From contig JAJTEN010000002.1 of NCBI GenBank assembly GCA_021298155.1, positions 10,580 to 74,579 on the forward strand: a stretch of DNA of 64,000 bases. Direction: 5' to 3'. This stretch comes from Sphingobacteriales bacterium. GTDB taxonomy: Bacteria; Bacteroidota; Bacteroidia; UKL13-3. The stretch's first letter is position 1; every line of letters starts with the position of its first letter. The notes beneath the pieces are model-generated. The model was given only the letters and a program-made list of their open reading frames with translations. It did no database searches and was not told the DNA's origin. Positions 8,052-57,628 of the stretch are shown piece by piece. The position numbers and the translations under genes are program-made.

Positions 8052-9574
8052 ATGAGTCTCAAAAAAGAAATAGATAAACGAAAAACTTTTGCCATTATCT
8101 CTCACCCCGATGCAGGTAAAACTACCTTAACCGAGAAGTTTTTATTATTTGGCGGTGCTATTCAGGTGGCAGGTGCTGTAAAAAGCAACAAAATAAAAAA
8201 AACCTCTACCTCAGATTTCATGGAAATTGAAAAACAACGTGGAATTTCTGTGGCAACTTCGGTAATGGCTTTTGAATACCAAGATAAACGCGTTAATATT
8301 TTAGATACACCTGGACATAAAGATTTTGCTGAAGACACTTATAGAACGCTAACAGCAGTAGACAGTGTAATATTGGTGATTGATTCTGTAAAAGGTGTTG
8401 AGGAACAAACTAAAAGATTGGTTGAAGTATGTAGGATGCGAAACACGCCCGTTATTATTTTTATTAATAAAATGGACAGAGAAGGTAAAGACCCATTTGA
8501 TTTAATAGAAGAAATAGACCAAACCCTACACATACAAACTAGGCCACTTACATGGCCAATTAACCAGGGAGCAACCTTTAAAGGGGTTTACAATTTATTT
8601 CGAAACAGCCTAAATTTATTTGAATCAAATAAAACGCAATTGGCAGATGAGGTAATTAATATAGCCGATTTAAATGGAGATGAAATAGTTGGATACGTAG
8701 GCGAAAAAGATACCCAAAAACTACGCGAAGATGTTGAGTTAATTAATGGCGTTTTTGAACCCTTTGATGTTGAATTATACCAAAGTGGCTTATTGGCACC
8801 TGTATTTTTTGGTTCAGCCATTAATAATTTTGGGATACAAGAATTACTAGAAACGTTTTTAGAAATTGCTCCTAGTCCGCGTAACCGCGAAGCACTAGAA
8901 CGCATGGTAGCAGCAGATGAACCCAAGTTAAGTGGCTTTATTTTTAAAATTCATGCCAACTTAGATCCCAACCATAGAGATCGCATTGCCTTTATGCGCA
9001 TTTGCTCTGGCAAGTTTGAACGCAATACGTTTTATTACCATACGCGTACCAACAAAAAGCTAAAATTCCGGGCGATGTAATTGGCTTATACGATAGCGGC
9101 AACTTTAAAATTGGCGATACCCTTACAGAAGGAGAAAATCTGCATTTTAAAGGTATACCTAGTTTTTCACCCGAAATTTTTAAGGAGCTAGAGAACCGAG
9201 ATCCAATGAAAACCAAACAGCTAGAAAAAGGCATTTCACAATTAAGTGAAGAGGGCGTTGCACAGTTGTTTATTCAAAATCCCGGTAATAGAAAAATTAT
9301 TGGTACGGTAGGCGAACTTCAATTTGAGGTAATCCAATTTAGGCTTGAACACGAATACGGCGCCAAATGTGCTTTTATTCCACTCAAGTTTTGGAAGGCA
9401 TTCTGGATTACCTGTAGCGATAAAAAAATGCTGGAAACCTTCATGCACCGCAAAGCCTACGCAATTGTACATGATAAAGAAGGTAATCCCGTTTTCTTGG
9501 CAGAAAGTGAATGGAATATTACCCTATCTAAGAACGATTTCCCGGATATTGAGTTTCATACCATTTCGGAGTAA
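8052..9574 (+). pseudogene. prfC: Peptide chain release factor 3, disrupted by an internal deletion and frameshift near 9068 (or an assembly error)
   Basis: [26 protein letters not shown], and later [12 protein letters not shown]. After KKLKF the conserved [19 protein letters not shown] continues in another frame, and the intervening residues are absent. Confidence 0.88.
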
Positions 9575-9724: not shown

Positions 9725-10465
9725 CTACAATTTCGTTTGAGCCAGCAAATCAGCTTCACTAATCAAACCTTTATTGCTCCACACCAATTTGCCCTCTTTA
9801 TACAGTTCCAAATAAGGTATTCCTTCAATGCCTTTAGATTGAAGTAAATCTGGATTATCATCGGCATCAATTTTAATAAGAACCAATTTATCTTTTTTCT
9901 CTTCTGCTACCTTATCTAAAATAGGCGATAACTTTTTACATGGACCGCACCATACGGCATTAAAATCTATCAATACATACTTATCGCCATAAGATGCTAT
10001 CGTTTTTAAATAGTCGGCCTCCGTTAATCCTTTTACCATAGGCGCTCCATTTTCTGCTGAAGCTTGATTGGTAACAAGCGGTTTTTTGGCATTATTCCAA
10101 GCCATAATACCGGGCATTTCATAAATGGTTGCAAACCCACTTTTTTGCAAGGTAGCAACAGCACCTGCGCTTCTTCCGCCTGATAGGCAATAAACAAATA
10201 CCGCTTTTGTTTTGTCTAACGTAGCAATTTTTTGCTCAAAATCTGAAGCATTCACATCCATATTAATAGCATTGGCAACATGGCCAGATGCATATTCTTC
10301 AGCTGTACGCACATCAATAATCTGAGCACCCGCTGTATTTGTAATTAATTTTTCAAACTCATCGGGTGAAACCTTTCCGCCTTTGCTGCTTTGTTGCGAA
10401 CAAGCACTTACTAATACAACTGCCATAAAAAACAGTGCCCCTAATTTTTGATTTAATTGATTCAT
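9725..10465 (-). CDS. Lipoprotein, rhodanese plus thioredoxin fusion
   Basis: Lipobox VSAC; IIDVRTAEEYASGH...YCLSGGRS rhodanese; WCGPC thioredoxin. Confidence 0.9.
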   Translation of the reverse strand: MNQLNQKLGALFFMAVVLVSACSQQSSKGGKVSPDEFEKLITNTAGAQIIDVRTAEEYASGHVANAINMDVNASDFEQKIATLDKTKAVFVYCLSGGRSAGAVATLQKSGFATIYEMPGIMAWNNAKKPLVTNQASAENGAPMVKGLTEADYLKTIASYGDKYVLIDFNAVWCGPCKKLSPILDKVAEEKKDKLVLIKIDADDNPDLLQSKGIEGIPYLELYKEGKLVWSNKGLISEADLLAQTKL

Positions 10466-10466
10466 A

Positions 10467-10736
10467 TTAATTTTCCTTTTTTGTTGAAGTTAGCGCTGTA
10501 AAAGTAATGTCTTCTCTTGATTTTTCAATTTTATTTGTATGCGGAACTGCGCAACCAGATGGAGATCCACAACCAACATTGAATAGTGCCTGAGCCAAAA
10601 AGAACAAAGAGAATATTCCTAAATAAACTTCATTACTTGTTAAAGCTTGAACCAAAATCATAAGTGCTAAAACAACTTTAAAAATTTTAATAAAAGACCA
10701 ATGACTTTTTAAATTGTCAAAAGAAAATAATTTCAT
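10467..10736 (-). CDS. Small membrane protein with a Cys pair
   Basis: Two hydrophobic helices then GCGSPSGC; 1-bp gaps to both neighbours. Confidence 0.7.
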   Translation of the reverse strand: MKLFSFDNLKSHWSFIKIFKVVLALMILVQALTSNEVYLGIFSLFFLAQALFNVGCGSPSGCAVPHTNKIEKSREDITFTALTSTKKEN

Positions 10737-10737
10737 A

Positions 10738-11016
10738 TTAGGCGGTTAATTCAAAATTTACTTGTAACCAAGACCCACCATTCTCGCATTTTATTCCTTT
10801 ATTACGCAGATACGCTGTAGCTTGCAAGCTTCTTCCACCAGAAGCACAGCATAATAAAACATCTTGCATAGACTTAAACTCATCTAACCTATTAGGAAGC
10901 TCATTCAATGGAATATTGATACTTCCTGCTACATGTCCGCCCATATATTCTTGAGGCGTTCTTACATCTACAATTTTTAAATTGCCTGTGGCAAACTCTT
11001 TTGCTATATTTTGCAT
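10738..11016 (-). CDS. Single-domain rhodanese (sulfurtransferase)
   Basis: IVDVRTPQEYMGGHVAGSINIPL; CCASGGRS active-site loop. Confidence 0.92.
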   Translation of the reverse strand: MQNIAKEFATGNLKIVDVRTPQEYMGGHVAGSINIPLNELPNRLDEFKSMQDVLLCCASGGRSLQATAYLRNKGIKCENGGSWLQVNFELTA

Positions 11017-11038
11017 AGTACTATTGTTATTTTTACTG

Positions 11039-11083
11039 CAAATTTGATTCAGATTTTTGATCCACTGTGTAACAGATGTTGCA
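11039..11083 (-). promoter_or_regulatory. Putative Crp/Fnr-type site plus -7 promoter box for the rhodanese operon
   Basis: TGTAACAGATGTTGCA at 11068-11083, 21 bp from CAAATTTG (11039-11046); same geometry at 48652 and 49520. Confidence 0.7.
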
Positions 11084-47711: not shown

Positions 47712-47753
47712 CATAAAAAAAGCAGCCTCTTAACCGAGGCTGCTTTTTTTATG
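47712..47753 (+). terminator. Rho-independent terminator
   Basis: CATAAAAAAAGCAGCCTC-ttaacc-GAGGCTGCTTTTTTTATG. Confidence 0.9.
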
Positions 47754-48009: not shown

Positions 48010-48642
48010 ATGGAACTTATAAAGCAAAATTTAAATACTTATTACCCGCAATTCGACGAAGATCTTAAGCATATAATTGCCACAAATGGGCGAATCCAAA
48101 AATTCAAAGTTGGAGAAACAATTATGCAGCAGGGTCAATTTCTAAAGCATACCATGCTTATAACAAGGGGTCGTGTAAAGCTACTTTCTGAAGGCGAGGA
48201 TGGAGAAGAATTCTTCATGTATTATTTGGAAGCAGGACAAGCTTGCGCGTTAAGCTTTGTTTGTGCTCAAAAAAATAAAAAAAGCGATTTAGATGCAACT
48301 ATCATTGAGGATACAGAAGCAATATTAATTCCTATTGAACTTATGGATGAATTAATGATTAAAAATAAATCTTGGTATTATTTTGTTTTGGATACTTACA
48401 GATCAAGATTTAGAGAGCTTTTAGATGTTATAAAAAGTGTTGCATTTCACAGCATGGACGAAAGACTATCATACTATTTAGTAAAGCAAAAAAATGCATA
48501 TAAAAGTAATCTCATTACCCTAACTCATGAACAAATTGCAAACGACTTAAACTCATCACGTGTTGTTATTTCAAGATTGCTAAAACAAATGGAAACACAG
48601 AAAAAGGTTAAACTACATCGAAATGCAGTAGAAATACTTTAA
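48010..48642 (+). CDS. Crp/Fnr family transcriptional regulator
   Basis: cNMP-binding-like N-domain; HTH LTHEQIANDLNSSRVVISRLLK. Confidence 0.92.
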   Translation: MELIKQNLNTYYPQFDEDLKHIIATNGRIQKFKVGETIMQQGQFLKHTMLITRGRVKLLSEGEDGEEFFMYYLEAGQACALSFVCAQKNKKSDLDATIIEDTEAILIPIELMDELMIKNKSWYYFVLDTYRSRFRELLDVIKSVAFHSMDERLSYYLVKQKNAYKSNLITLTHEQIANDLNSSRVVISRLLKQMETQKKVKLHRNAVEIL

Positions 48643-48651
48643 TAAAAGGTA

Positions 48652-48696
48652 TGTAACATTTGTAACGCAATGAATTATTCAACAATTATACATTTG
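48652..48696 (+). promoter_or_regulatory. Putative Crp/Fnr site plus -7 box
   Basis: TGTAACATTTGTAACG (48652-48667), 21 bp, TACATTTG (48689-48696). Confidence 0.7.
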
Positions 48697-48718
48697 TACA
48701 AAAGTTAATATTGTACTT

Positions 48719-49513
48719 ATGGAAATTATTGGATATTTAGCCTCTGCTCTAATAGGAATATCTCTTGGGTTAATTGGTGGTGGTGGCTCAATTTTAACCG
48801 TACCTGTTTTGGTTTATTTATTGGATGTAAATGCCGTTGAAGCCACCGCATATTCCCTTTTCATAGTTGGTTCAACAGCTCTAGTTGGTGCCTACCCGAA
48901 ATATAAACAAGGCCTTGTTAATATTAAAACGGCAATTATTTTTGGTATACCATCTATCATCGCGGTATACATAACCAGAAAATTTTTAGTTCCAGCCATT
49001 CCTTCCGATCTAATTACAATAGATGGGTTCATAATAACAAAAAGTATCTTAATGATGCTCATTTTTGCAGCACTAATGGTATTTGCATCTGCAAGTATGA
49101 TTAAAGACCAAAAAGTTGTTTCGAATCCAAAAAATACTGAACAAAAATTTAACTATCCTATGATTTTATTAGAAGGGACAATAGTTGGCATGTTAACTGG
49201 TTTAGTTGGTGCAGGAGGTGGATTTTTAATTATTCCCGCACTTGTAATTTTTACAGGGCTACCCATGAAAGAAGCAGTAGGCACTTCCTTATTGATAATC
49301 GCAGCAAAATCACTTATCGGGTTTACTGGTGATTTAGGGCATTTCAACATGAATTGGAAGCTATTACTAATCGTTTCAAGTATTGCAATTGCTGGAATTT
49401 TTATTGGTAATTACCTGTCGTTGAAAATTGATGGTGCAAAACTCAAAAAAGGATTTGGCTGGTTCGTACTAATAATGGGGCTATATATTATCGTTAAAGA
49501 ACTATTTTTATAA
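48719..49513 (+). CDS. TauE/SafE (TSUP) sulfite exporter family protein
   Basis: GLIGGGGSILTVP and GLVGAGGGFLIIP repeats; multiple TM helices. Confidence 0.92.
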   Translation: MEIIGYLASALIGISLGLIGGGGSILTVPVLVYLLDVNAVEATAYSLFIVGSTALVGAYPKYKQGLVNIKTAIIFGIPSIIAVYITRKFLVPAIPSDLITIDGFIITKSILMMLIFAALMVFASASMIKDQKVVSNPKNTEQKFNYPMILLEGTIVGMLTGLVGAGGGFLIIPALVIFTGLPMKEAVGTSLLIIAAKSLIGFTGDLGHFNMNWKLLLIVSSIAIAGIFIGNYLSLKIDGAKLKKGFGWFVLIMGLYIIVKELFL

Positions 49514-49519
49514 GGCCTT

Positions 49520-49564
49520 TGTAATAAATGTAACACAGGTTTTAAAATTAAAACCTCAATATTG
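49520..49564 (+). promoter_or_regulatory. Putative Crp/Fnr site plus -7-like box
   Basis: TGTAATAAATGTAACA (49520-49535), 21 bp, CAATATTG (49557-49564). Confidence 0.6.
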
Positions 49565-49594
49565 TAATCAACATAACAATACATATTTCATCAA

Positions 49595-51019
49595 ATGAAA
49601 ATAGAACAAATTTATACAGGATGTTTGGCACAAGGTGCCTATTACATCGAATCAAATGGCGAAGCAGTAGTGATAGATCCACTGCGAGAAACCACGCCAT
49701 ACATAGAGCGAGCAGCTGCAAGCGGAGCAAAAATTAAATACGTTTTCGAAACACATTTCCATGCAGATTTTGTTTCAGGTCACATAGATTTAGCAAAAGC
49801 CACTGGTGCTCAAATTGTATACGGACCCACAGAAATGAAATTAGGTTTTGATGCCATTATTGCTTCCGATAAACAAGAATTTAAGGTTGGCAATATTACT
49901 TTTACCTTATTACATACACCCGGTCATACGCTTGAAAGCTCATGCTATTTACTAAGCGATGAAAATGGTAAACAAATCGCCATTTTTACAGGAGATACCT
50001 TGTTTATAGGTGATGTTGGAAGACCAGATTTGGCCCAAAAAGTAGTGGCAAATTTAACCCAAGACATGCTTGCTTCTTATTTATTTGATTCTTTGCGCAA
50101 TAAAATTATGCCTTTAAACAATGACTTAATTGTTTATCCTGCCCATGGCGCAGGTTCTGCTTGCGGGAAAAATATGAGTAAAGAAACTTTTGATACCCTT
50201 GGCAACCAAAAAGAAACAAATTATGCCTTGCGTGCCAACATGACTAAAGAAGAATTCATTAAAGAAGTGATTACTGGTTTAATGCCACCACCTGCCTATT
50301 TCCCTAAAAATGTTTTAATGAATATTGAAGGGTACGATAACATTGAAGAAGTATTGTCTAGAGGAACCCAAGCCTTAACACCAAACGGATTTGAAGCAGC
50401 TGCTAACGAAACAGGAGCGCTAATTTTAGATACACGCAAACCTCAAGATTTTGCCAAAGGTTTTATCCCAAACGCTATTAATATTGGTATTGATGGAGGT
50501 TTTGCTCCTTGGGTTGGAACTTTAATTCCAGATATTAAACAAAACATACTTATTGTAGCAGAGCTTGGAAGAGAAATGGAAATTGTAACGCGTTTGGCAC
50601 GTGTAGGTTACGACCACGCTATTGGCTATTTAGCAGGTGGTTTTGAAGCTTGGGCAAATGCTGGCAAAGAAATAGATAACATCACATCTATAAGTGTAGA
50701 AGAATTTGCAGCGGCAGAACAAGCCGATCCAACAATCCATATTTTAGATGTTAGAAAAATCAGCGAATACCAATCAGAACACCTAATTAACGCCATAAAC
50801 GCTCCTTTAGATTACATAAATGAGAGCATGCTTAAAGTGGATAAATCTAAAACTTATTTTGTGCATTGCGCAGGTGGTTACCGCTCTATGATTTTTGCTT
50901 CTATATTAAAAGCAAGAGGATACACAAATTTAATTGACGTAGCTGGTGGGTTTAAAGCCATAAAAGATTCCCAAAAGTTTAAGGTTTCAGAATACGTTTG
51001 TCCTTCCACTTTATTGTAA
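49595..51019 (+). CDS. MBL-fold persulfide dioxygenase with two rhodanese domains (CstB-like)
   Basis: ETHFHADFVSG, HTPGHT, FTGDTLF, PAHGAGSACG; HCAGGYRS. Confidence 0.9.
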   Translation: MKIEQIYTGCLAQGAYYIESNGEAVVIDPLRETTPYIERAAASGAKIKYVFETHFHADFVSGHIDLAKATGAQIVYGPTEMKLGFDAIIASDKQEFKVGNITFTLLHTPGHTLESSCYLLSDENGKQIAIFTGDTLFIGDVGRPDLAQKVVANLTQDMLASYLFDSLRNKIMPLNNDLIVYPAHGAGSACGKNMSKETFDTLGNQKETNYALRANMTKEEFIKEVITGLMPPPAYFPKNVLMNIEGYDNIEEVLSRGTQALTPNGFEAAANETGALILDTRKPQDFAKGFIPNAINIGIDGGFAPWVGTLIPDIKQNILIVAELGREMEIVTRLARVGYDHAIGYLAGGFEAWANAGKEIDNITSISVEEFAAAEQADPTIHILDVRKISEYQSEHLINAINAPLDYINESMLKVDKSKTYFVHCAGGYRSMIFASILKARGYTNLIDVAGGFKAIKDSQKFKVSEYVCPSTLL

Positions 51020-51054
51020 AATATTTCAGTAAAAAAATAAATGTGATAAATAAT

Positions 51055-51618
51055 ATGTTAGAACTTTTAAAACAACCATGGCCATGGTATATAAGTGGTC
51101 CAATCATCGGAATTTCTATTCCACTATTATTGATATTTGGAAACAAAATACTGGGCATTTCTTCCTCCTTTAGGCATACCTGTGCAGCCGTAGCTCCATT
51201 TAATATCCAATTTTTGAAATATAATTGGAAATCTGAAATATGGAATATGTTTTTTGTGCTTGGAATTTTTATTGGCGGTTTTGTTGGCGGAGTATTACTA
51301 AATAATGGCGAAGCAGTTAAGATATCAGAAGCAACTATTTCAGATATAAAAAGTTTAGGCATAAACTCATTTGATGGACTAATTCCTTCCGATGTATTCA
51401 ATTGGAATACTTTACTATCTGTCAAAGGAGTATTTATAATGGTATTTGGTGGGATAATGATAGGTTTTGGATCTCGCTATGCAGGAGGTTGTACTTCCGG
51501 ACACGCAATTATGGGTATTTCTAATCTTCAATGGCCTTCATTAATTGCAGTCATATTCTTCTTTATCGGTGGTCTTCTCATGACACATTTTATTGCTCCA
51601 TTTATTTATCAACTATAA
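51055..51618 (+). CDS. YeeE/YedE family sulfur-compound transporter subunit
   Basis: PWPWY..G, GFGSRYAGGCTSGH. Confidence 0.9.
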   Translation: MLELLKQPWPWYISGPIIGISIPLLLIFGNKILGISSSFRHTCAAVAPFNIQFLKYNWKSEIWNMFFVLGIFIGGFVGGVLLNNGEAVKISEATISDIKSLGINSFDGLIPSDVFNWNTLLSVKGVFIMVFGGIMIGFGSRYAGGCTSGHAIMGISNLQWPSLIAVIFFFIGGLLMTHFIAPFIYQL

Positions 51619-51632
51619 TTATCCTGAAACAA

Positions 51633-52043
51633 ATGAAAAATATTAGATTTTTATTAATAGGTATTCTTTTTGGAACTGTACTTACAAAATCAGAGGCTGT
51701 TTCATGGTTTAGAATTCAAGAAATGTTTCGCTTTCAAAGTTTTCATATGTATGGTATCATTGGGTCAGCCATTGCTGTAGGTATGCTATCTATTTGGCTC
51801 ATAAAAAAGTTCAAAATAAAGGCTGTTAATGGAGAAGAAATTAAAATAGCAGATAAAGAATTTAATAAAGGACAAATAATTGGTGGAACAATATTTGGAA
51901 TGGGCTGGGCCTTATCTGGGGCATGTCCAGGACCACTCTATTCCTTAGTTGGATCAGGATATTATTTAATATTTGTTGTTATTATAAGTGCCATTTTTGG
52001 TACTTGGTTATATAGTTATTTTAAACCAAAACTGCCACATTAA
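51633..52043 (+). CDS. YeeE/YedE family partner subunit
   Basis: SWFRIQEMF, FGMGWALSGACPGP. Confidence 0.88.
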   Translation: MKNIRFLLIGILFGTVLTKSEAVSWFRIQEMFRFQSFHMYGIIGSAIAVGMLSIWLIKKFKIKAVNGEEIKIADKEFNKGQIIGGTIFGMGWALSGACPGPLYSLVGSGYYLIFVVIISAIFGTWLYSYFKPKLPH

Positions 52044-52078
52044 TTCAAATTTATTTTTAGTACCTAACTCAAATTATA

Positions 52079-53080
52079 ATGCGCTCTTTAAAGATATTTT
52101 TGCTCATTGTTCTTGGCGTTGCAATGGCTATCGTATTACTCTTTAATCGCCAATTTAACTCCAAAAATATAGAAGAAAAATCTGGTAGAACTGAAACAAT
52201 AACGTCTAATACATTATGGCAGGCGCCTGTTGAATCTCTATTACACAAGGAGCCTAATGCTGAAGAAATTTTATATGGTAAAGAGCTTATCAAAAACACC
52301 TCCTTATATCTAGGTAAAAAGGGAAGTGTTAAAGCCATTAGCAATGGCATGAATTGTCAAAATTGCCATTTAGAGGCAGGAACTAAAGCCTGGGGCAATA
52401 ATTATGCAGCAGTTTATAGTACTTATCCAAAATTTAGAGAACGCTCTGGCGCCATAGAAACAATCTCTAAAAGAGTAAACGACTGCATTGAACGCAGCCT
52501 AAATGGTGAAGCCTTAGATACAAACAGCAAGGAAATGCTGGCCATAATAAGTTATATCAAATGGCTCGGCTCAGGACTAAAAAAGGGTGAAAAGCCCAAT
52601 GGAAGTGGTATTATAGAATTACCCTTTTTAGACCGGGAAGCCAGCCCCAAAAAAGGAAAAATTGTGTACGAATCTAAATGCCAAAGTTGTCACCAACCCA
52701 ATGGCGAAGGCATACTCAATTCCGACCAAAAGAGTTATACATTTCCACCTTTATGGGGCGCTCATAGTTATAATTCTGGTGCTGGATTATATAGGTTATC
52801 TAGGTTTGCTGGATATGTAAAAGCAAATATGCCTTTAGGTGCAAGTTATAGCGCGCCTCTACTAACAGATGAAGAAGCTTGGGATGTAGCCGCATTTGTT
52901 AATACACAGAAAAGACCGAGCAAAAATATAAATAAAGACTGGCCAAATCTTGCTGGCAAGCCAATTGATCACCCTTTCGGACCTTTTACAGATGGTTTCT
53001 CAGAAAAACAACACAAGCTTGGTCCGTTTGAACCCATTAAAATCAAAAGAGCTGAAATGAAAAAAAATAAAACAACGTGA
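52079..53080 (+). CDS. tsdA: Diheme c-type cytochrome, thiosulfate dehydrogenase/tetrathionate reductase TsdA
   Basis: CQNCH and CQSCH; catalytic Cys in RVNDCIERSLNG; FPPLWG.HSYNSGAG; ANMP. Confidence 0.85.
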   Translation: MRSLKIFLLIVLGVAMAIVLLFNRQFNSKNIEEKSGRTETITSNTLWQAPVESLLHKEPNAEEILYGKELIKNTSLYLGKKGSVKAISNGMNCQNCHLEAGTKAWGNNYAAVYSTYPKFRERSGAIETISKRVNDCIERSLNGEALDTNSKEMLAIISYIKWLGSGLKKGEKPNGSGIIELPFLDREASPKKGKIVYESKCQSCHQPNGEGILNSDQKSYTFPPLWGAHSYNSGAGLYRLSRFAGYVKANMPLGASYSAPLLTDEEAWDVAAFVNTQKRPSKNINKDWPNLAGKPIDHPFGPFTDGFSEKQHKLGPFEPIKIKRAEMKKNKTT

Positions 53081-54495
53081 AAAATCTATTAATTCTCATT
53101 TCATTTTTATTAATTGGTTTCTCTAAATTAAAAGCCCAAGTTGCCCAACCATATATTCATCATACAGAGCGCGATAAGAATAAAAAAGATACAAATACAC
53201 TGCAAGCATTCTTTAGAAATGGAGAGTTTTACGGACATGCCAGATACTACTTTATGGCAACAGATAACGACCATGATTTAAAGGATTTTTATGCCAATGC
53301 TTTTGGAATGGGAATTGGATACGAAACTGGAAAATTTAAAGGTTTTCAAATTGGCATAAGTGGTTTTTTTATTTATAATCTATTTTCATCAGATTTCAGT
53401 ATAACAGACGCAAAAACAGGAGTAGGTAGTCGATACGAACTTGGGCAATTTGATATGACAAATCCGCGAAATAAAACGGATATGGACAGATTGGAAGATT
53501 TGTATTTGAAATATTCCTCCAACAACTCATATCTTAAATTTGGGAAACAACATATTAGAAGTCCTTTTATAAACCCTCAAGATGGACGCATGCGACCAAC
53601 TTTAATAGAAGGTGCACTTTTTGAATGTAATGAAGTGAAAAACTTAAAACTAGAGGGCGGATGGATTTTTGGAATATCACCGCGCAGCACGGTGAGTTAT
53701 TTTGGCATTGGCGAGTCTATGTCAATTTTCCCACCAGGGATAGGGTTAGATGGTAAGAAATCTCAATATCCAGGAAATATAAGCAGTAATGCGATTTATT
53801 TAGGCAGTGCAACCTTTCAACTTCCAATCAACGCCAAATTACAACTATTAAATCAACACATTGATCAAGTTTTAAATAGCTCTTTTGCCCAATTAAATGG
53901 AGATTTTAAATGGAAAAAAAATAAAAATATCTTTTATGGCGCCCAATATATTCAGCAACATGCGATTGGAAATGGGGGCAATGTTAACCAAAACCTAAGT
54001 TATGTTAGAAAAGGAAATGTAGCTCGAACCTTTGGTTTTAGGTTAGGCATAGAAGAAAAAAAGAACTGGCAAATACTGCTAAATTATAATCGCATTACGA
54101 AAGATGGAAGGTATCTCATGCCACGCGAATGGGGGAGAGATCCTTTCTTTACCTTTATGGCCAGAGAGCGGAATGAGGGGTATGCAGATGTACATGCAAT
54201 AAATGTTGTAGCAAATAAAATTTTAGGCTCAAGTGGTTTTAAAATTGAAGCTGCTTATGGGCACTTTTATCTCCCAGATATAAACAATGTTGCATTAAAC
54301 AAATATGCTATGCCATCCTATTTTCAAGGGAATGTAGATTTACGATATACCTTCAGAGGATTCTATAGTGGTTTAGAAGCCCAATTTTTATATGTTTATA
54401 AAGGTCAATTAGGCAATGTATACGAAAATGATAAAAATGTTATTAATAAAGTAAATATGTCTTTGTACAACTTTATATTGAATTACCATTTTTAA
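53077..54495 (+). CDS. OprD-like outer-membrane porin
   Basis: Signal peptide, PFINPQDGRMRP, terminal ILNYHF; 4-bp overlap with tsdA. Confidence 0.75.
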   Translation: MKNLLILISFLLIGFSKLKAQVAQPYIHHTERDKNKKDTNTLQAFFRNGEFYGHARYYFMATDNDHDLKDFYANAFGMGIGYETGKFKGFQIGISGFFIYNLFSSDFSITDAKTGVGSRYELGQFDMTNPRNKTDMDRLEDLYLKYSSNNSYLKFGKQHIRSPFINPQDGRMRPTLIEGALFECNEVKNLKLEGGWIFGISPRSTVSYFGIGESMSIFPPGIGLDGKKSQYPGNISSNAIYLGSATFQLPINAKLQLLNQHIDQVLNSSFAQLNGDFKWKKNKNIFYGAQYIQQHAIGNGGNVNQNLSYVRKGNVARTFGFRLGIEEKKNWQILLNYNRITKDGRYLMPREWGRDPFFTFMARERNEGYADVHAINVVANKILGSSGFKIEAAYGHFYLPDINNVALNKYAMPSYFQGNVDLRYTFRGFYSGLEAQFLYVYKGQLGNVYENDKNVINKVNMSLYNFILNYHF

Positions 54496-54513
54496 TGGCT
54501 AAAATTACAGATT

Positions 54514-56226
54514 ATGAATAAGGATAATAAATCGACCGAAAAAAGTAGAAGAACTTTTTTAAAAAAATTAGGGATCCTAGGCGCAGGTAGCAGCCTTTTA
54601 GCTGGCTCAGGAGAATTGGCTCAAGCTAAAACGCCACATTCATTTGAAAGCAATAAGACTAAAAATAATACGCCACAGACGGTTTCTATCATACAGTCTA
54701 CCGATGTTCATTGTCAAGTGCATCCTCATGACGAATTATTCTGGGAAAATGATAAGGCAGTTTTCAGAAAAACTGGAGGATATGCACAATTAGCAAGCTA
54801 TATTAAGAATCAGAGAAAAAAGAACCCAAATACCTTTTTTATAGATACAGGCGATATGTTTCAAGGGAGTGAGCTTTCAGTTAAAACTACAGGAAAAGCA
54901 ATAGTACCAATATTAAATGAACTTACTTATGACCTTTACCTTCCTGGGAATTGGGAAGTGATTTATTACAAGAAAGCAATGCAAACATTATTAGGCTCAC
55001 TAAATGCACCTAAAGTTTGCGCTAATATGTATCACGATTTAGGCGATGGTAAAAAGGGTGAACTTATCTTTCATCCCTATCATATTTGGCATGTAGCTGG
55101 CATTAAAATTGGTTTCCTTGGGTACACAGACCCTTTAGTTCCTTTAAGGCAATCACCTAATTACAGTAAAGGAATTATCTATACCAAACCAGAGGAAAAT
55201 ATAGAACATTATGTAGATGTATTGCGCAATGACGAAAAATGTGCATTTGTTATAGTACTATCACACCTAGGTTTATCGCAACAAATTGCTTTAGCTAATT
55301 CGCCAGAATGCAATGGTGTAGACTTTATATTGGGTGGTGATACCCACGAAAGAGTGCGCGTACCCATAGAATGTAAATACGCTAAAGTAGTTGAACCTGG
55401 TGCTTTTGGCTCATTCGTAGGCAGACTAGACTTAACCGTAAACAATGGTAAAATTACTGAAGTTAATTATCACTTAGATGAAATTGATGCATCCAAAATA
55501 AAAGCTGATAAGGAAATGCTTGCTTTAATTGCCGAAAACGAAAAGCCATTTGCAGATGATATATATAAAGTTATTGGATATAGCACTGTGCCATTATATC
55601 GCTATTTTGTAGTTGAAAATACAATAGATACACTTGTACTAGATGCATTAAAATGGCAAATGAAAGATATTGATATTGTACTTAGCAACGGATTCAGATT
55701 TTGCCCACCTAGAACTACTCCAGACCAAAGTGGAAATATTCCTATTACCAATGGTTACCTTTTTGATATGTTACCTGTAGATAGTACAGTTAGAATTGGA
55801 AAAGTAAGCGGAAAACAAATACATGATTGGCTAGAAAAAGAATTAAACAATGTTTTTGCCAAAGATGCCTCTAAACGTTTTGGTGGTTGGGTCATTAAAT
55901 TCAAAGGTATGAAAATTACTTTTAAAGCATATGAAGAAATGGGTAAACGGATTCAAAGTGTTGAAGTAGCAGGAAAGGCGCTAGAGTTAGATAGACAGTA
56001 TAGCATTTGTGCTTGCGAACGCGATGGAGATCCTTCAGACATGCTTTGCAGAATGCGCAATGTAAATGAAGCCAAAAATACGGAACATACGCTGCATTCT
56101 GTGATGCTAAATTATTTAAAATCTAACTCACCTGTTAGTCCAATTTTACCTAATGCAGCAATCATTTTAGATGCACCACAAACTTTATTAACTCAAGTTT
56201 ATGGTGTTAACTATGAATTTAAGTGA
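54514..56226 (+). CDS. Tat-exported SoxB-like thiosulfohydrolase (5'-nucleotidase superfamily)
   Basis: SRRTFLKK Tat motif; TDVH, DTGD..QGS, GNWE, LSHLG, GGDTHE, GSFVGRLDL, SNGFRF. Confidence 0.78.
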   Translation: MNKDNKSTEKSRRTFLKKLGILGAGSSLLAGSGELAQAKTPHSFESNKTKNNTPQTVSIIQSTDVHCQVHPHDELFWENDKAVFRKTGGYAQLASYIKNQRKKNPNTFFIDTGDMFQGSELSVKTTGKAIVPILNELTYDLYLPGNWEVIYYKKAMQTLLGSLNAPKVCANMYHDLGDGKKGELIFHPYHIWHVAGIKIGFLGYTDPLVPLRQSPNYSKGIIYTKPEENIEHYVDVLRNDEKCAFVIVLSHLGLSQQIALANSPECNGVDFILGGDTHERVRVPIECKYAKVVEPGAFGSFVGRLDLTVNNGKITEVNYHLDEIDASKIKADKEMLALIAENEKPFADDIYKVIGYSTVPLYRYFVVENTIDTLVLDALKWQMKDIDIVLSNGFRFCPPRTTPDQSGNIPITNGYLFDMLPVDSTVRIGKVSGKQIHDWLEKELNNVFAKDASKRFGGWVIKFKGMKITFKAYEEMGKRIQSVEVAGKALELDRQYSICACERDGDPSDMLCRMRNVNEAKNTEHTLHSVMLNYLKSNSPVSPILPNAAIILDAPQTLLTQVYGVNYEFK

Positions 56227-56248
56227 AAAAGAGGTTTCTCCATACAGT

Positions 56249-56278
56249 AAAACCCGCTCTAGACAGAGCGGGTTTTTT
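56249..56278 (+). terminator. Rho-independent terminator ending the sulfur operon
   Basis: AAAACCCGCTCT-agac-AGAGCGGGTTTTTT. Confidence 0.9.
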
Positions 56279-56335
56279 GTTTAGGTGAAGTTTAATAATA
56301 TTGCACAACTCAAAGGAAAATTAACTTAACTCATT

Positions 56336-56983
56336 ATGAAAACTAAACCCTCAAAATCGTACGATAAACTCATTGAAAATAATAAAGAATGGGCCGCTTC
56401 AGTAGTTAAAGACGATCCTGAATTTTTTTCTCGCTTGTCTAATGTACAAAAACCCGAATTTTTATGGATTGGTTGCAGCGATAGCAGAGTTCCGGCAGAT
56501 AGAATTACGGGAACCCAACCTGGAGAAATTTTTGTTCATAGAAATATTGCCAATATGGTTATTCATACCGACATGAATTTACTTGCGGTATTAGAATATG
56601 CCGTTGATCACTTAGAAGTAAGTCATATTCTGGTTTGCGGCCATTATGGTTGCGGAGGTGTTAAGGCTGCCATGTCGCGCCACAACTTTGATTTAATTAA
56701 TAAATGGATCAGAAATATCAAAGATGTATACAGAATGCACAGAGAAACCATAGATTTTCAAACTAAACCTGAGGAGAGGCTGAATAAATTAATTGAACTT
56801 AATGTAGAGGAACAGGTGATGAACCTTGCCAAAACAAGTATCATTCAAAAGTCTTGGAAAAATAAAAAAAGCCCCGAAATACATGGTTGGGTTTATAGTT
56901 TAGAAGACGGACTAATTAAAGAAGTTTGCCGAATGACCTATCAAGATCATTTAGATCCATTATATGAATTTGATGATTTATAG
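56336..56983 (+). CDS. can: Beta-class carbonic anhydrase
   Basis: WIGCSDSRV, GEIFVHRNIAN, CGHYGCGG. Confidence 0.92.
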   Translation: MKTKPSKSYDKLIENNKEWAASVVKDDPEFFSRLSNVQKPEFLWIGCSDSRVPADRITGTQPGEIFVHRNIANMVIHTDMNLLAVLEYAVDHLEVSHILVCGHYGCGGVKAAMSRHNFDLINKWIRNIKDVYRMHRETIDFQTKPEERLNKLIELNVEEQVMNLAKTSIIQKSWKNKKSPEIHGWVYSLEDGLIKEVCRMTYQDHLDPLYEFDDL

Positions 56984-57013
56984 TTAACAAAAAATCATTT
57001 TATTTGCTAAGCT

Positions 57014-57628
57014 ATGGTATACGAAAAATTATATGCATTAATTGGCAACTTTAATGCAAATCTTATGGCAGATGAGCGAAAAGAAACGCTTCAACCTCTC
57101 ATACAATATATTCAAGAAAAACAAAATAAGGGAGCACCAACGAATTTAAATTTTATTTGCACACACAATTCTCGAAGAAGTCATTTGTCTCAAATATGGG
57201 CGCAAACCATGGCATATCATTTTGGTATAAAAAATATATATTGTTATTCTGGCGGAACCGAAGCTACTGCAATGTTTCCAAAAGTTGTAGAAACCTTGTC
57301 TGGTCAGGGATTTCAAGTGCATATGCTCTCTGAATCAGAAAACCCCATATATGCGGTAAAGTTTGCACAAAACGAACAGCCAATTATTTGCTTTTCTAAA
57401 GTATATCAACACGATTTTAATCCTAAAAATAATTTTGGTGCGGTGGTAACCTGCAATAACGCTGATGAAGCTTGCCCAATGGTTTTAGGTGCAGAAGCAA
57501 GGTTTCCTGTGAAATACAGCGACCCAAAAGCATTTGATAATACGCCACAACAAACAGAAAAATACTTGGAACGAAGCTTAGAAATTGCGCAAGAAATGTG
57601 GTGGTTATTTTCGCATATTAACCATTAG
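57014..57628 (+). CDS. LMW-PTP/arsenate reductase (ArsC-like) family protein
   Basis: FICTHNSRRS P-loop, ADEACP, DPK. Confidence 0.88.
   Translation: MVYEKLYALIGNFNANLMADERKETLQPLIQYIQEKQNKGAPTNLNFICTHNSRRSHLSQIWAQTMAYHFGIKNIYCYSGGTEATAMFPKVVETLSGQGFQVHMLSESENPIYAVKFAQNEQPIICFSKVYQHDFNPKNNFGAVVTCNNADEACPMVLGAEARFPVKYSDPKAFDNTPQQTEKYLERSLEIAQEMWWLFSHINH

Follow-up and report, generated by a model that had tools for sequence, protein, structure and literature searches.

A predicted SoxYZ-independent gene module for thiosulfate and tetrathionate processing in a Sphingobacteriales bacterium

A cluster of eight sulfur-related genes was found in a 64,000-nt stretch of the genome of a Sphingobacteriales bacterium (GCA_021298155.1, contig JAJTEN010000002.1, positions 10,580-74,579, forward strand), here referred to as the window. 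The genes, all on the + strand at window positions 48010-56278, were delimited by open reading frame (ORF) coordinates together with Pfam and NCBIfam matches, and encode a Crp/Fnr-family regulator, a TauE/SafE-family membrane protein, a persulfide dioxygenase (PDO)-rhodanese fusion, two half-size YeeE/YedE membrane proteins, a TsdA-type cytochrome, an OprD-like porin and a SoxB-like hydrolase with a twin-arginine translocation (Tat) leader. At somewhat better than even odds (about 0.55), we read the cluster as a self-contained module that would act across three cell compartments and process thiosulfate and tetrathionate without a SoxYZ carrier, in a heterotrophic host. The observations behind this reading are which genes are present, where their products are predicted to reside, the conservation of catalytic residues and of synteny, and the lack of Sox genes. 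The initial annotation of this DNA had listed the same eight genes as co-oriented and closed by one terminator, with no sox genes in the window; Pfam and NCBIfam recovered every member, all eight lie on one strand with a closing hairpin, and the lack of sox genes extended to the whole genome.

For the proposed pathway we infer every activity and the direction of each step. The OprD-like porin would admit sulfur anions, and periplasmic TsdA would convert two thiosulfates to tetrathionate, passing two electrons to the respiratory chain, for which two haem-copper oxidases in the genome, one of them cbb3-type, are a possible sink. The Tat-exported hydrolase would take sulfate off tetrathionate, leaving sulfane sulfur and possibly thiosulfate; hydrolysis of one sulfonate would give sulfate and disulfane monosulfonate, which would decay to sulfur and thiosulfate. 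A PmpA/PmpB heterodimer could then import sulfane sulfur or thiosulfate into the cytoplasm, where the PDO-rhodanese fusion would oxidise it to sulfite or thiosulfate, and TauE would export the product, with re-entry into the cycle possible. Alternatively, the rhodanese domain may join sulfite with sulfane sulfur to give thiosulfate, which would go back into the cycle. Because sulfite and thiosulfate would re-enter the cycle, full oxidation would need neither a sulfite oxidase nor SoxCD. The predicted locations fit such a chain: the porin in the outer membrane, TsdA and the SoxB-like protein in the periplasm, PmpAB and TauE in the inner membrane and the PDO-rhodanese in the cytoplasm.

A comparable route is in print for Erythrobacter flavus, as the initial annotation had stated. 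According to that study, thiosulfate induces a cluster with TsdA, three SoxB-like genes annotated as metallophosphatase/5'-nucleotidase and a PDO-rhodanese, and mutants lacking tsdA or one SoxB-like gene form almost no sulfur globules from thiosulfate (PMC7608252). The tsdA mutant is reported to still make zero-valent sulfur from tetrathionate (PMC9426585). The combination that characterizes this pathway, TsdA with a SoxB-like hydrolase and a PDO-rhodanese and no SoxYZ, was also found in the window. Furthermore, a build-up of periplasmic sulfane sulfur is described to induce yeeE, yedE and pdo in Cupriavidus lacking SoxCD (PMC9959259).

Predicted proteins and conserved gene order

The SoxB-like protein combines a twin-arginine leader (SRRTFLKKLG) at its N-terminus with dinuclear metallophosphoesterase motifs, as expected of SoxB, and R12-R13, D64-x-H66, G113-D114, G145-N146, H251 and G275-D276-x-H278 were kept in all 79 orthologues aligned. 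Its best NCBIfam match is SoxB (TIGR04486), with 263.6 bits (255.4 in the genome search) against a cut-off of 550, and its best PDB match is SoxB of Thermus thermophilus (2WDC, E = 9e-30), with nucleotidases next; identity to Paracoccus SoxB is about 28%. A maximum-likelihood tree of 17 rows, in which the deep forks are weak, contained three groups: canonical SoxB (Paracoccus, Rhodobacter, Methylosinus), signal-less proteins of about 480 aa from Novosphingobium, Bradyrhizobium and Bosea together with a Pontibacter paralogue, and a Tat-type Bacteroidota clade on a long stem (100/100 support) that includes the window protein. The protein thus did not group with canonical SoxB, and soxYZ was found neither beside it nor elsewhere in its genome. 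Judged by these features, it is best called SoxB-like rather than SoxB, with tetrathionate as a predicted substrate.

One search, seeded with four proteins of about 480 aa (three alphaproteobacterial and the Pontibacter paralogue), showed a very wide distribution of the signal-less family that extends to many methanogen and Asgard-archaeon bins; none of the best 80 loci was from Erythrobacter. On Bradyrhizobium and Novosphingobium plasmids, signal-less SoxB-like genes occur with genes for c-type cytochromes, YeeE/DUF6691, TauE, DsbA/TlpA and DsrE proteins.

Conservation of the cluster in Bacteroidota, a survey suggested by the initial annotation, was assessed with the SoxB-like protein as query and one genome per species. 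Relatives were recovered from at least 589 species-level genomes. The best 80 of these share 67-87% identity with the query and are, by record title, nearly all Bacteroidota (Chitinophagaceae, Sphingobacteriales including Daejeonella rubra DSM 24536, Flavobacteriales, Saprospiraceae and Cytophagales), with a few metagenome bins titled as other groups. Among 47 related loci flanked by 5 kb or more on either side, tblastn within about 6.8 kb of the SoxB-like gene detected TsdA in 46, yeeB in 46, yeeA in 45, the porin in 37, crp in 27, pdo in 22 and tauE in 11. Because tsdA, yeeA and yeeB are linked to the hydrolase gene in 45-46 of the 47 loci, the conserved core of the cluster is PmpAB-TsdA-SoxB-like. 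Gene order is also kept: in 60 of the 63 loci where the sequence reaches far enough upstream, tsdA precedes the SoxB-like gene on the same strand. The porin and regulator genes stand either upstream, as in the window, or downstream of the hydrolase gene.

The same survey bears on the simplest alternative, that the SoxB-like gene encodes an ordinary periplasmic 5'-nucleotidase whose placement by sulfur genes is incidental. Public annotations of its relatives, mostly 'bifunctional metallophosphatase/5'-nucleotidase', agree with such a role, as do its generic Pfam domains (PF00149 and PF02872 only), although some JGI records use the names 'sulfur-oxidizing protein SoxB' or 'S-sulfosulfanyl-L-cysteine sulfohydrolase'. 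The near-constant linkage with TsdA, which spans several families, makes an incidental placement highly improbable, as does the fact that the best NCBIfam and PDB matches are both to SoxB. Even at the locus where TsdA and all other cluster genes are missing (L014), the SoxB-like gene follows thioredoxin and rhodanese genes.

The cytochrome aligned over residues 53-280 with TsdA of Allochromatium vinosum (4WQ7, E = 7e-45), matched PF21342 at 47.8 against a cut-off of 27 and has a predicted N-terminal signal or anchor. It has the residues that define TsdA: two CxxCH haem sites (C93/C96/H97 and C201/C204/H205), the haem-1 cysteine ligand C136 and the haem-2 methionine ligand M251, all of which, together with N250, were invariant in 65 orthologues, with K248 kept in 62 of them. 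The haem-2 motif K248-x-N250-M251 is of the Campylobacter jejuni type (K252-x-N254-M255) and not K208-M209 as in A. vinosum. TsdA of C. jejuni is reported to be bidirectional with a bias to tetrathionate reduction, A. vinosum TsdA has Lys-Met at haem 2, and the haem-2 residues are described to modulate the direction without fixing it (PMC5146829). Since the arrangement matches that of the bidirectional C. jejuni enzyme, the direction of the putative interconversion of thiosulfate and tetrathionate cannot be read off the sequence.

TsdA could also be considered as a tetrathionate reductase: tetrathionate taken up through the porin would serve as an electron acceptor when oxygen is low, and the other genes would handle the resulting thiosulfate. 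The haem-2 motif is in line with this role, and the cbb3-type oxidase, with an Fnr-like paralogue close by, suggests life at low oxygen. We consider it unlikely, as an operon that combines a sulfate-releasing hydrolase with an oxygen-dependent dioxygenase fits oxidation better, the cluster encodes no electron-donating partner, and the motif, as noted above, does not fix direction.

The remaining proteins are consistent with sulfur transfer between the compartments. The PDO-rhodanese matched solved fusions of metallo-beta-lactamase (MBL) and rhodanese domains over its full length (3TP9, E = 1e-64; 3R2U, E = 6e-60), and all 36 orthologues kept H54-x-H56-x-D58, H111, D134 and the rhodanese C425. 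An MBL metal motif with a C-terminal rhodanese active-site cysteine is the hallmark of CstB-like PDO-rhodanese fusions; the protein fell far below the Blh equivalog NF040641 (47 vs 625 bits), and no signal peptide was found, predicting a cytoplasmic location. YeeA covers PF04143 profile positions 248-309 and TsuA positions 168-327, and YeeB covers PF04143 positions 10-103; each has one cysteine kept in 64 of 64 sequences (C147 in GGCTSGH and C98 in GACPGP, respectively), and neither reached the TsuA equivalog cut-offs of NCBIfam. PmpA and PmpB have been described as proteins of about 130 aa, each with four helices and a single conserved cysteine, and a heterodimer of the two has been proposed as the equivalent of YeeE; thiosulfate import by YeeE/TsuA, on which the initial annotation had drawn, is in print in the same source (PMC11582611). 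The window pair answers to this description, being adjacent YeeE halves of about 130-190 aa with a single conserved cysteine each. The TauE protein scored 147.8 bits against PF01925 (gathering threshold 32.6, E = 5.5e-43) and is a putative exporter of sulfite or another anion. The porin has an N-terminal signal, a PF03573 match of 46.4 bits and weak PDB matches to OpdO and OpdH.

Sulfur genes elsewhere in the genome and in the phylum

The assembly (2.50 Mb, 71 contigs) is 98.7% complete, and no match to SoxY (TIGR04488), SoxZ or the Oxidored_molyb domain (SoxC, SorA, YedY) was detected anywhere in it. Searches of the genome by tblastn with SoxA and SoxC of Paracoccus and SoxZ of Methylosinus gave no match, nor did SQR-like flavoprotein, sulfite oxidase and DsrE queries taken from plasmid records, and TusA was not found. 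Thirteen Pyr_redox_2 matches were recovered (two in one 415-aa frame), including two dihydrolipoyl dehydrogenases, one thioredoxin reductase, MnmG, CrtD, CrtI, geranylgeranyl-reductase-type proteins, an aminoacetone-oxidase-type flavoprotein and alanine dehydrogenase; further matches were to an unassigned 519-aa protein with weak matches only and to L094, which at 19.5 bits was below the cut-off. No candidate for SQR or flavocytochrome c sulfide dehydrogenase (FCSD) was seen among these matches, with one sub-cut-off match left unclassified. Complete sox genes elsewhere would have undone the SoxYZ-independent character that the initial annotation had proposed for this module; with sqr sought as well, that character stands in the genome.

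It also holds among relatives. An evenly sampled set of 400 other genomes of the phylum contained a SoxB-like orthologue (E <= 1e-80) in 17, of which 15 had a TsdA-like gene and none had SoxY; SoxY was present in 46 of the 400 genomes, all in two families of another class. Within the genus of the window, 10 of 18 other species carry the SoxB-like gene. Runella slithyformis DSM 19594 (L106) carries the whole set on a 44.7-kb plasmid, pRUNSL04, where all genes are generically named, and a TsdA/SoxB-like/DsrE set lies on the mobilisable plasmid Paks1 of Pontibacter akesuensis (L108), adjoining relaxase and conjugative-transposon genes. Such plasmid copies, together with the patchy distribution of the cluster, point to horizontal spread.

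Sulfur assimilation was also considered as the purpose of the cluster, which would then scavenge reduced sulfur for biosynthesis in a lineage unable to reduce sulfate. A sulfite reductase domain is absent from this genome and from all 18 other species of the genus, the only PAPS-reductase-family match in the genome is TilS, and TusA is missing, as mentioned above; the genus is probably dependent on reduced or organic sulfur. However, sulfite reductase is missing across the whole genus, whether or not a species has the cluster, which occurs in just 10 of the 18 species, and of the 17 carriers elsewhere in the phylum, 10 encode a sulfite reductase domain. The cut-offs of the CysK/M and MetY models were not reached in the genome, where the best matches are cystathionine beta-synthase-like and cystathionine gamma-synthase/lyase-type proteins, and a route from sulfide to amino acids is therefore not evident. 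An oxidising dioxygenase and an exporter are moreover ill-suited to assimilation, and overall this explanation appears quite unlikely.

Regulation, an accessory DsrE-like protein and the direction of flow

The regulator has both Crp/Fnr domains (PF00027, 36.6 bits; PF13545, 33.7 bits), reached none of the CRP, FNR and NtcA equivalog cut-offs of NCBIfam and has no N-terminal cysteine cluster of the FNR kind in its sequence. All 46 cluster-linked orthologues, even those at 34-40% identity, keep a cysteine pair, C79-x5-C85, which sits in the region where CRP binds the phosphate of cyclic AMP. The closest solved protein, 3DV8, is an uncharacterised Crp/Fnr-family regulator that likewise has a C-x5-C pair. 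This pair is missing from the sole other Crp/Fnr paralogue in the genome, which is encoded on contig C35, within a few kb of the gene for the second haem-copper oxidase.

Candidate operators for the regulator were found at two promoters. Within the window, GTAAYANNNGTAAC is matched exactly at two sites, one 53-66 nt before tauE and the other 61-74 nt before pdo, and relatives have boxes of this type at the corresponding positions, about 27 nt ahead of a TTTG-containing element that we take to be the Bacteroidota -7 box. Some relatives have the full palindrome GTAAC-N4-GTTAC; a 5-N4-5 geometry is that of FNR-type boxes. When a relaxed pattern was counted in the 160 nt upstream of each gene at related loci, it was present before tauE in 24/36 and before pdo in 17/45, compared with 42 of 3000 random 163-nt windows; the counts were 2/47 for crp, 2/56 for the porin, 2/71 for tsdA, 2/77 for soxB, 0/41 for the universal-stress gene of relatives (usp) and 0/63 for yeeA. 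The Crp/Fnr regulator probably controls tauE and the pdo-to-soxB operon through these GTAAC-type boxes, a pairing that we infer. As conserved boxes precede both tauE and pdo, they also suggest at least two or three promoters in the cluster rather than one. A scan for sigma-70-type promoters was uninformative, with 36 sites where 43.9 were expected and a consensus that does not cover Bacteroidota promoters. At two loci (L010, at about 9940, and L017), a SoxB-like gene without TsdA has the perfect palindrome GTAACATTAGTTAC just upstream.

The position of the boxes, before tauE and pdo and not before the periplasmic genes, would also agree with an outward flow of sulfur, in which the cluster disposes of the cell's own reactive sulfur. 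Persulfides would then be supplied by cysteine and methionine catabolism and converted by the PDO-rhodanese to sulfite and thiosulfate, TauE and PmpAB would export the products, and periplasmic TsdA and the SoxB-like protein would finish them to sulfate. Genes of the PDO-rhodanese, TauE and PmpAB types form persulfide-responsive sets elsewhere, e.g., on a Novosphingobium plasmid with an ArsR-type regulator, and the genome has the cystathionine enzymes mentioned above and no SQR candidate, which leaves external sulfide as no obvious input. We give this explanation a real chance, well short of even. A dedicated outer-membrane porin in 37 of 47 loci suggests exchange with the outside, the invariant core is formed by PmpAB, TsdA and the SoxB-like gene with pdo and tauE nearby in just 22 and 11 of the 47, and the published cases of YeeE-family transport point to import, not export (PMC11582611, PMC9959259).

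Many relatives encode additional proteins that the window lacks. A DsrE-family protein of 146 aa with a signal peptide is encoded beside the SoxB-like gene in 32 of the 47 fully flanked loci (e.g., L004:8119-8559, L009:8115-8555, L026:11697-12134 and L106:11567-11983), and its gene had no tblastn match in the genome of the window. One cysteine (C100, motif C-E-N/F-S) was invariant in 30 sequences, and MTH1491 and ST0148 are solved relatives. On plasmids of Methylosinus, Novosphingobium and Pontibacter, too, SoxB or SoxB-like genes have DsrE-family genes as neighbours. Because DsrE3 of Metallosphaera reportedly reacts with tetrathionate to form a cysteine-bound thiosulfonate, the analogy suggests that the DsrE-like protein may act as a carrier. 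Complex prediction for the SoxB-like (L004, residues 45-574) and DsrE-like (L004, residues 21-143) proteins, run without controls, gave a score of 0.00 against a mark of 0.32 and counts neither way. A tandem universal-stress protein of about 279 aa is encoded between pdo and yeeA in 31 of the 47 loci (L004:5266-6105, L026:7057-7893); the cluster in the window has no such gene, and the rest of the genome gave weak distant matches only (22-31% identity).

Taken together, these features allow a broader and rather doubtful proposal. The regulator could be a thiol-based sensor of reactive sulfur that, via its C-x5-C pair, would act on 5-N4-5 GTAAC/GTTAC boxes at the tauE and pdo promoters, and the periplasmic DsrE-like protein could be a carrier in place of SoxYZ, turning tetrathionate into a Cys-thiosulfonate that the SoxB-like enzyme would hydrolyse. 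The cluster in the window would then be a carrier-free minimal form, and the whole a complete Sox-free sulfur oxidation cycle. No description of a Crp/Fnr-type sulfane-sulfur sensor was found in the searched literature on Crp/Fnr regulators and persulfide or sulfane sulfur.

Several observations weigh against an inward thiosulfate/tetrathionate route. The SoxB-like protein scores well below the SoxB model cut-off and groups neither with canonical SoxB nor with the alphaproteobacterial SoxB-like proteins of the 17-row tree, and its likeness to the E. flavus hydrolase D0Y83_01365 is known from description, not from sequence alignment. Tetrathionate hydrolysis in E. flavus itself rests, as reported, on genetics and stoichiometry (PMC7608252, PMC9426585). 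The haem-2 arrangement of the window TsdA is that of a reduction-biased enzyme; TsdA lies far from the SoxB-like gene in 4 of the 15 TsdA-bearing carriers of the phylum sample, and 2 of 17 carriers have no TsdA match. Moreover, GTAAC-type boxes are absent upstream of yeeA and rare upstream of tsdA and soxB, and no RNA run was among the listed sequencing runs that hold the locus. These are 20 DNA runs drawn from 11 studies, and most carry the label of a freshwater, lake, aquatic or plankton metagenome.

Locus features and comparison with known systems

The features of the locus are listed in Table 1. The genes from pdo through soxB are spaced by -4 to 35 nt, and the stretch around the closing terminator (56227-56295) has a minimum free energy of -25.7 kcal/mol (z = -4.71, none of 200 shuffles as stable).

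Table 1. Sulfur cluster and flanking terminators, in window coordinates.
Feature	Position	Strand	Description
Upstream hairpin terminator	47712..47753	+	18-nt arms, 100% complementary, then T run; ends a type IX secretion system (T9SS)-cargo gene, left module boundary
crp	48010..48642	+	Crp/Fnr-family regulator, 210 aa; PF00027, PF13545
Box GTAACATTTGTAAC	48653..48666	+	53-66 nt before tauE start; candidate operator
tauE	48719..49513	+	TauE/SafE-family membrane protein, 264 aa; PF01925
Box GTAATAAATGTAAC	49521..49534	+	61-74 nt before pdo start; candidate operator/promoter region of six-gene operon
pdo	49595..51019	+	Persulfide dioxygenase with two rhodanese domains, 474 aa; PF00753, 2x PF00581
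yeeA	51055..51618	+	PmpA-type half-size YeeE/YedE membrane protein, 187 aa; PF04143 C-terminal half
yeeB	51633..52043	+	PmpB-type half-size YeeE/YedE membrane protein, 136 aa; PF04143 N-terminal half, PF20398 (DUF6691)
tsdA-like	52079..53080	+	TsdA-type dihaem cytochrome c, 333 aa; PF21342, PF00034
porin	53077..54495	+	OprD-like outer-membrane porin, 472 aa, signal peptide; PF03573
soxB-like	54514..56226	+	Tat-exported SoxB-like dinuclear metallophosphoesterase, 570 aa; PF00149, PF02872
Intrinsic terminator	56249..56276	+	12-bp stem, 6 GC pairs, T run; closes operon

Beyond the terminator, at 56336-57628 (+), lie genes for a beta-carbonic anhydrase (NF007756, 261.6 bits) and a 204-aa ArsC/low-molecular-weight-phosphatase-like protein; both were considered as members of the module and rejected, as they stand behind the terminator and are syntenic in the closest relatives only. 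A rhodanese-thioredoxin fusion of 246 aa is encoded 38 kb from the sulfur cluster (9725-10465, -), adjoined by further rhodanese-like tblastn matches at about 10079-11040. The gene for release factor 3, prfC, is seemingly split into two pieces about 125 nt apart, 8052-9080 (+; 342 aa with GTP_EFTU and EF-G domain 2) and 9206-9574 (+; 122 aa with RF3_C), which could be a frameshift, an assembly error or a pseudogene. The rest of the window, with its glycoside hydrolases and T9SS cargo proteins, fits a polysaccharide-degrading heterotroph.

The initial annotation had presented the cluster as a compact thiosulfate/tetrathionate pathway with its own porin. That gene set was confirmed, but the pathway is less new than implied and its SoxB-like member is below the model cut-off. 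The occurrence of tsdA and soxB sets in Bacteroidetes is already stated in the E. flavus paper, and in its Table S5 two strains, Hymenobacter sp. PAMC 26554 and Maribacter sp. T28, have homologues of both TsdA and SoxB and are marked 'NO MATCH' for soxYZ (PMC7608252). TsdA-encoding Bacteroidetes (Cecembia) with transcripts are reported from a soda lake (PMC6704655), and TsdA with SoxB has been invoked in community surveys (PMC12345210). The route itself is thus already known, and the cluster is a well-documented variant, not a new kind of system. The Tat-type Bacteroidota hydrolase clade, the near-invariant PmpAB-TsdA linkage, the dedicated porin, the C-x5-C regulator with its boxes and the periplasmic DsrE-like partner were not found described in the searched literature; no description of the cluster was found among the listed papers on PDO, YeeE and TauE in Bacteroidetes, and those listed on TsdA and SoxB in Bacteroidota were survey papers only. 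The published E. flavus gene map may already show YeeE or TauE genes (PMC7608252), which limits this negative.

Labels of soxB in genomes lacking SoxYZ would overstate classical Sox potential and hide a separate route. Because the cluster is common (at least 589 species-level genomes, 17 of 400 in the phylum and 10 of 18 in the genus, plasmid-borne in Runella and Pontibacter), the contribution of freshwater and soil Bacteroidota to thiosulfate and tetrathionate turnover may exceed what is assumed. Cultured type strains carry the cluster, which makes the substrate of a SoxB-like enzyme outside Sox, a possible DsrE-type carrier and a possible Crp-family sulfur sensor testable.

Among known systems, the TsdA + SoxB + SdoA/B pathway of E. 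flavus 21-3 is alike in its TsdA-type cytochrome of about 36 kDa, a hydrolase annotated as metallophosphatase/5'-nucleotidase, a clustered PDO-rhodanese and no reliance on SoxYZ, as described in PMC7608252 and PMC9426585. It differs in having three SoxB-like genes, whereas the window has one, with a Tat leader and from a Bacteroidota-specific clade; here, in addition, the PmpAB pair is a constant neighbour, and the set includes a porin and a Crp/Fnr regulator. Canonical Sox (SoxXA, SoxYZ, SoxB, SoxCD) shares a periplasmic, Tat-exported dinuclear metallohydrolase and, in its form without SoxCD, the expected net conversion of thiosulfate to sulfate and sulfane sulfur. In contrast, the cluster described here comes with no SoxY, SoxZ, SoxA or SoxC, and its hydrolase is only distantly similar to Paracoccus SoxB and below the TIGR04486 cut-off.

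The S4-intermediate pathway of acidophiles (DoxDA/TQO and TetH) likewise runs from thiosulfate through tetrathionate to sulfate, sulfur and thiosulfate (PMC9426585), but with unrelated enzymes: a quinone oxidoreductase where the window has a cytochrome c TsdA, and TetH where it has a metallophosphoesterase. The host of the window is a neutral freshwater organism. Persulfide-responsive sets of the cst and bigR types, including that of Novosphingobium pSA3, have a CstB-like fusion (3R2U, 3TP9), TauE and a half-size YeeE pair in common with the window, whereas here there is no SQR, a Crp/Fnr protein stands instead of an ArsR/CsoR sensor, and TsdA and a Tat-type SoxB-like hydrolase are added. Finally, the Sox-SoxT-sHdr system of Hyphomicrobium denitrificans resembles the proposed module in its periplasmic partial oxidation, YeeE-family import and cytoplasmic oxidation to sulfite; it is described with a full-length YeeE protein, SoxT, and sHdr, where the window has the split PmpAB and an oxygen-dependent dioxygenase (PMC11582611).

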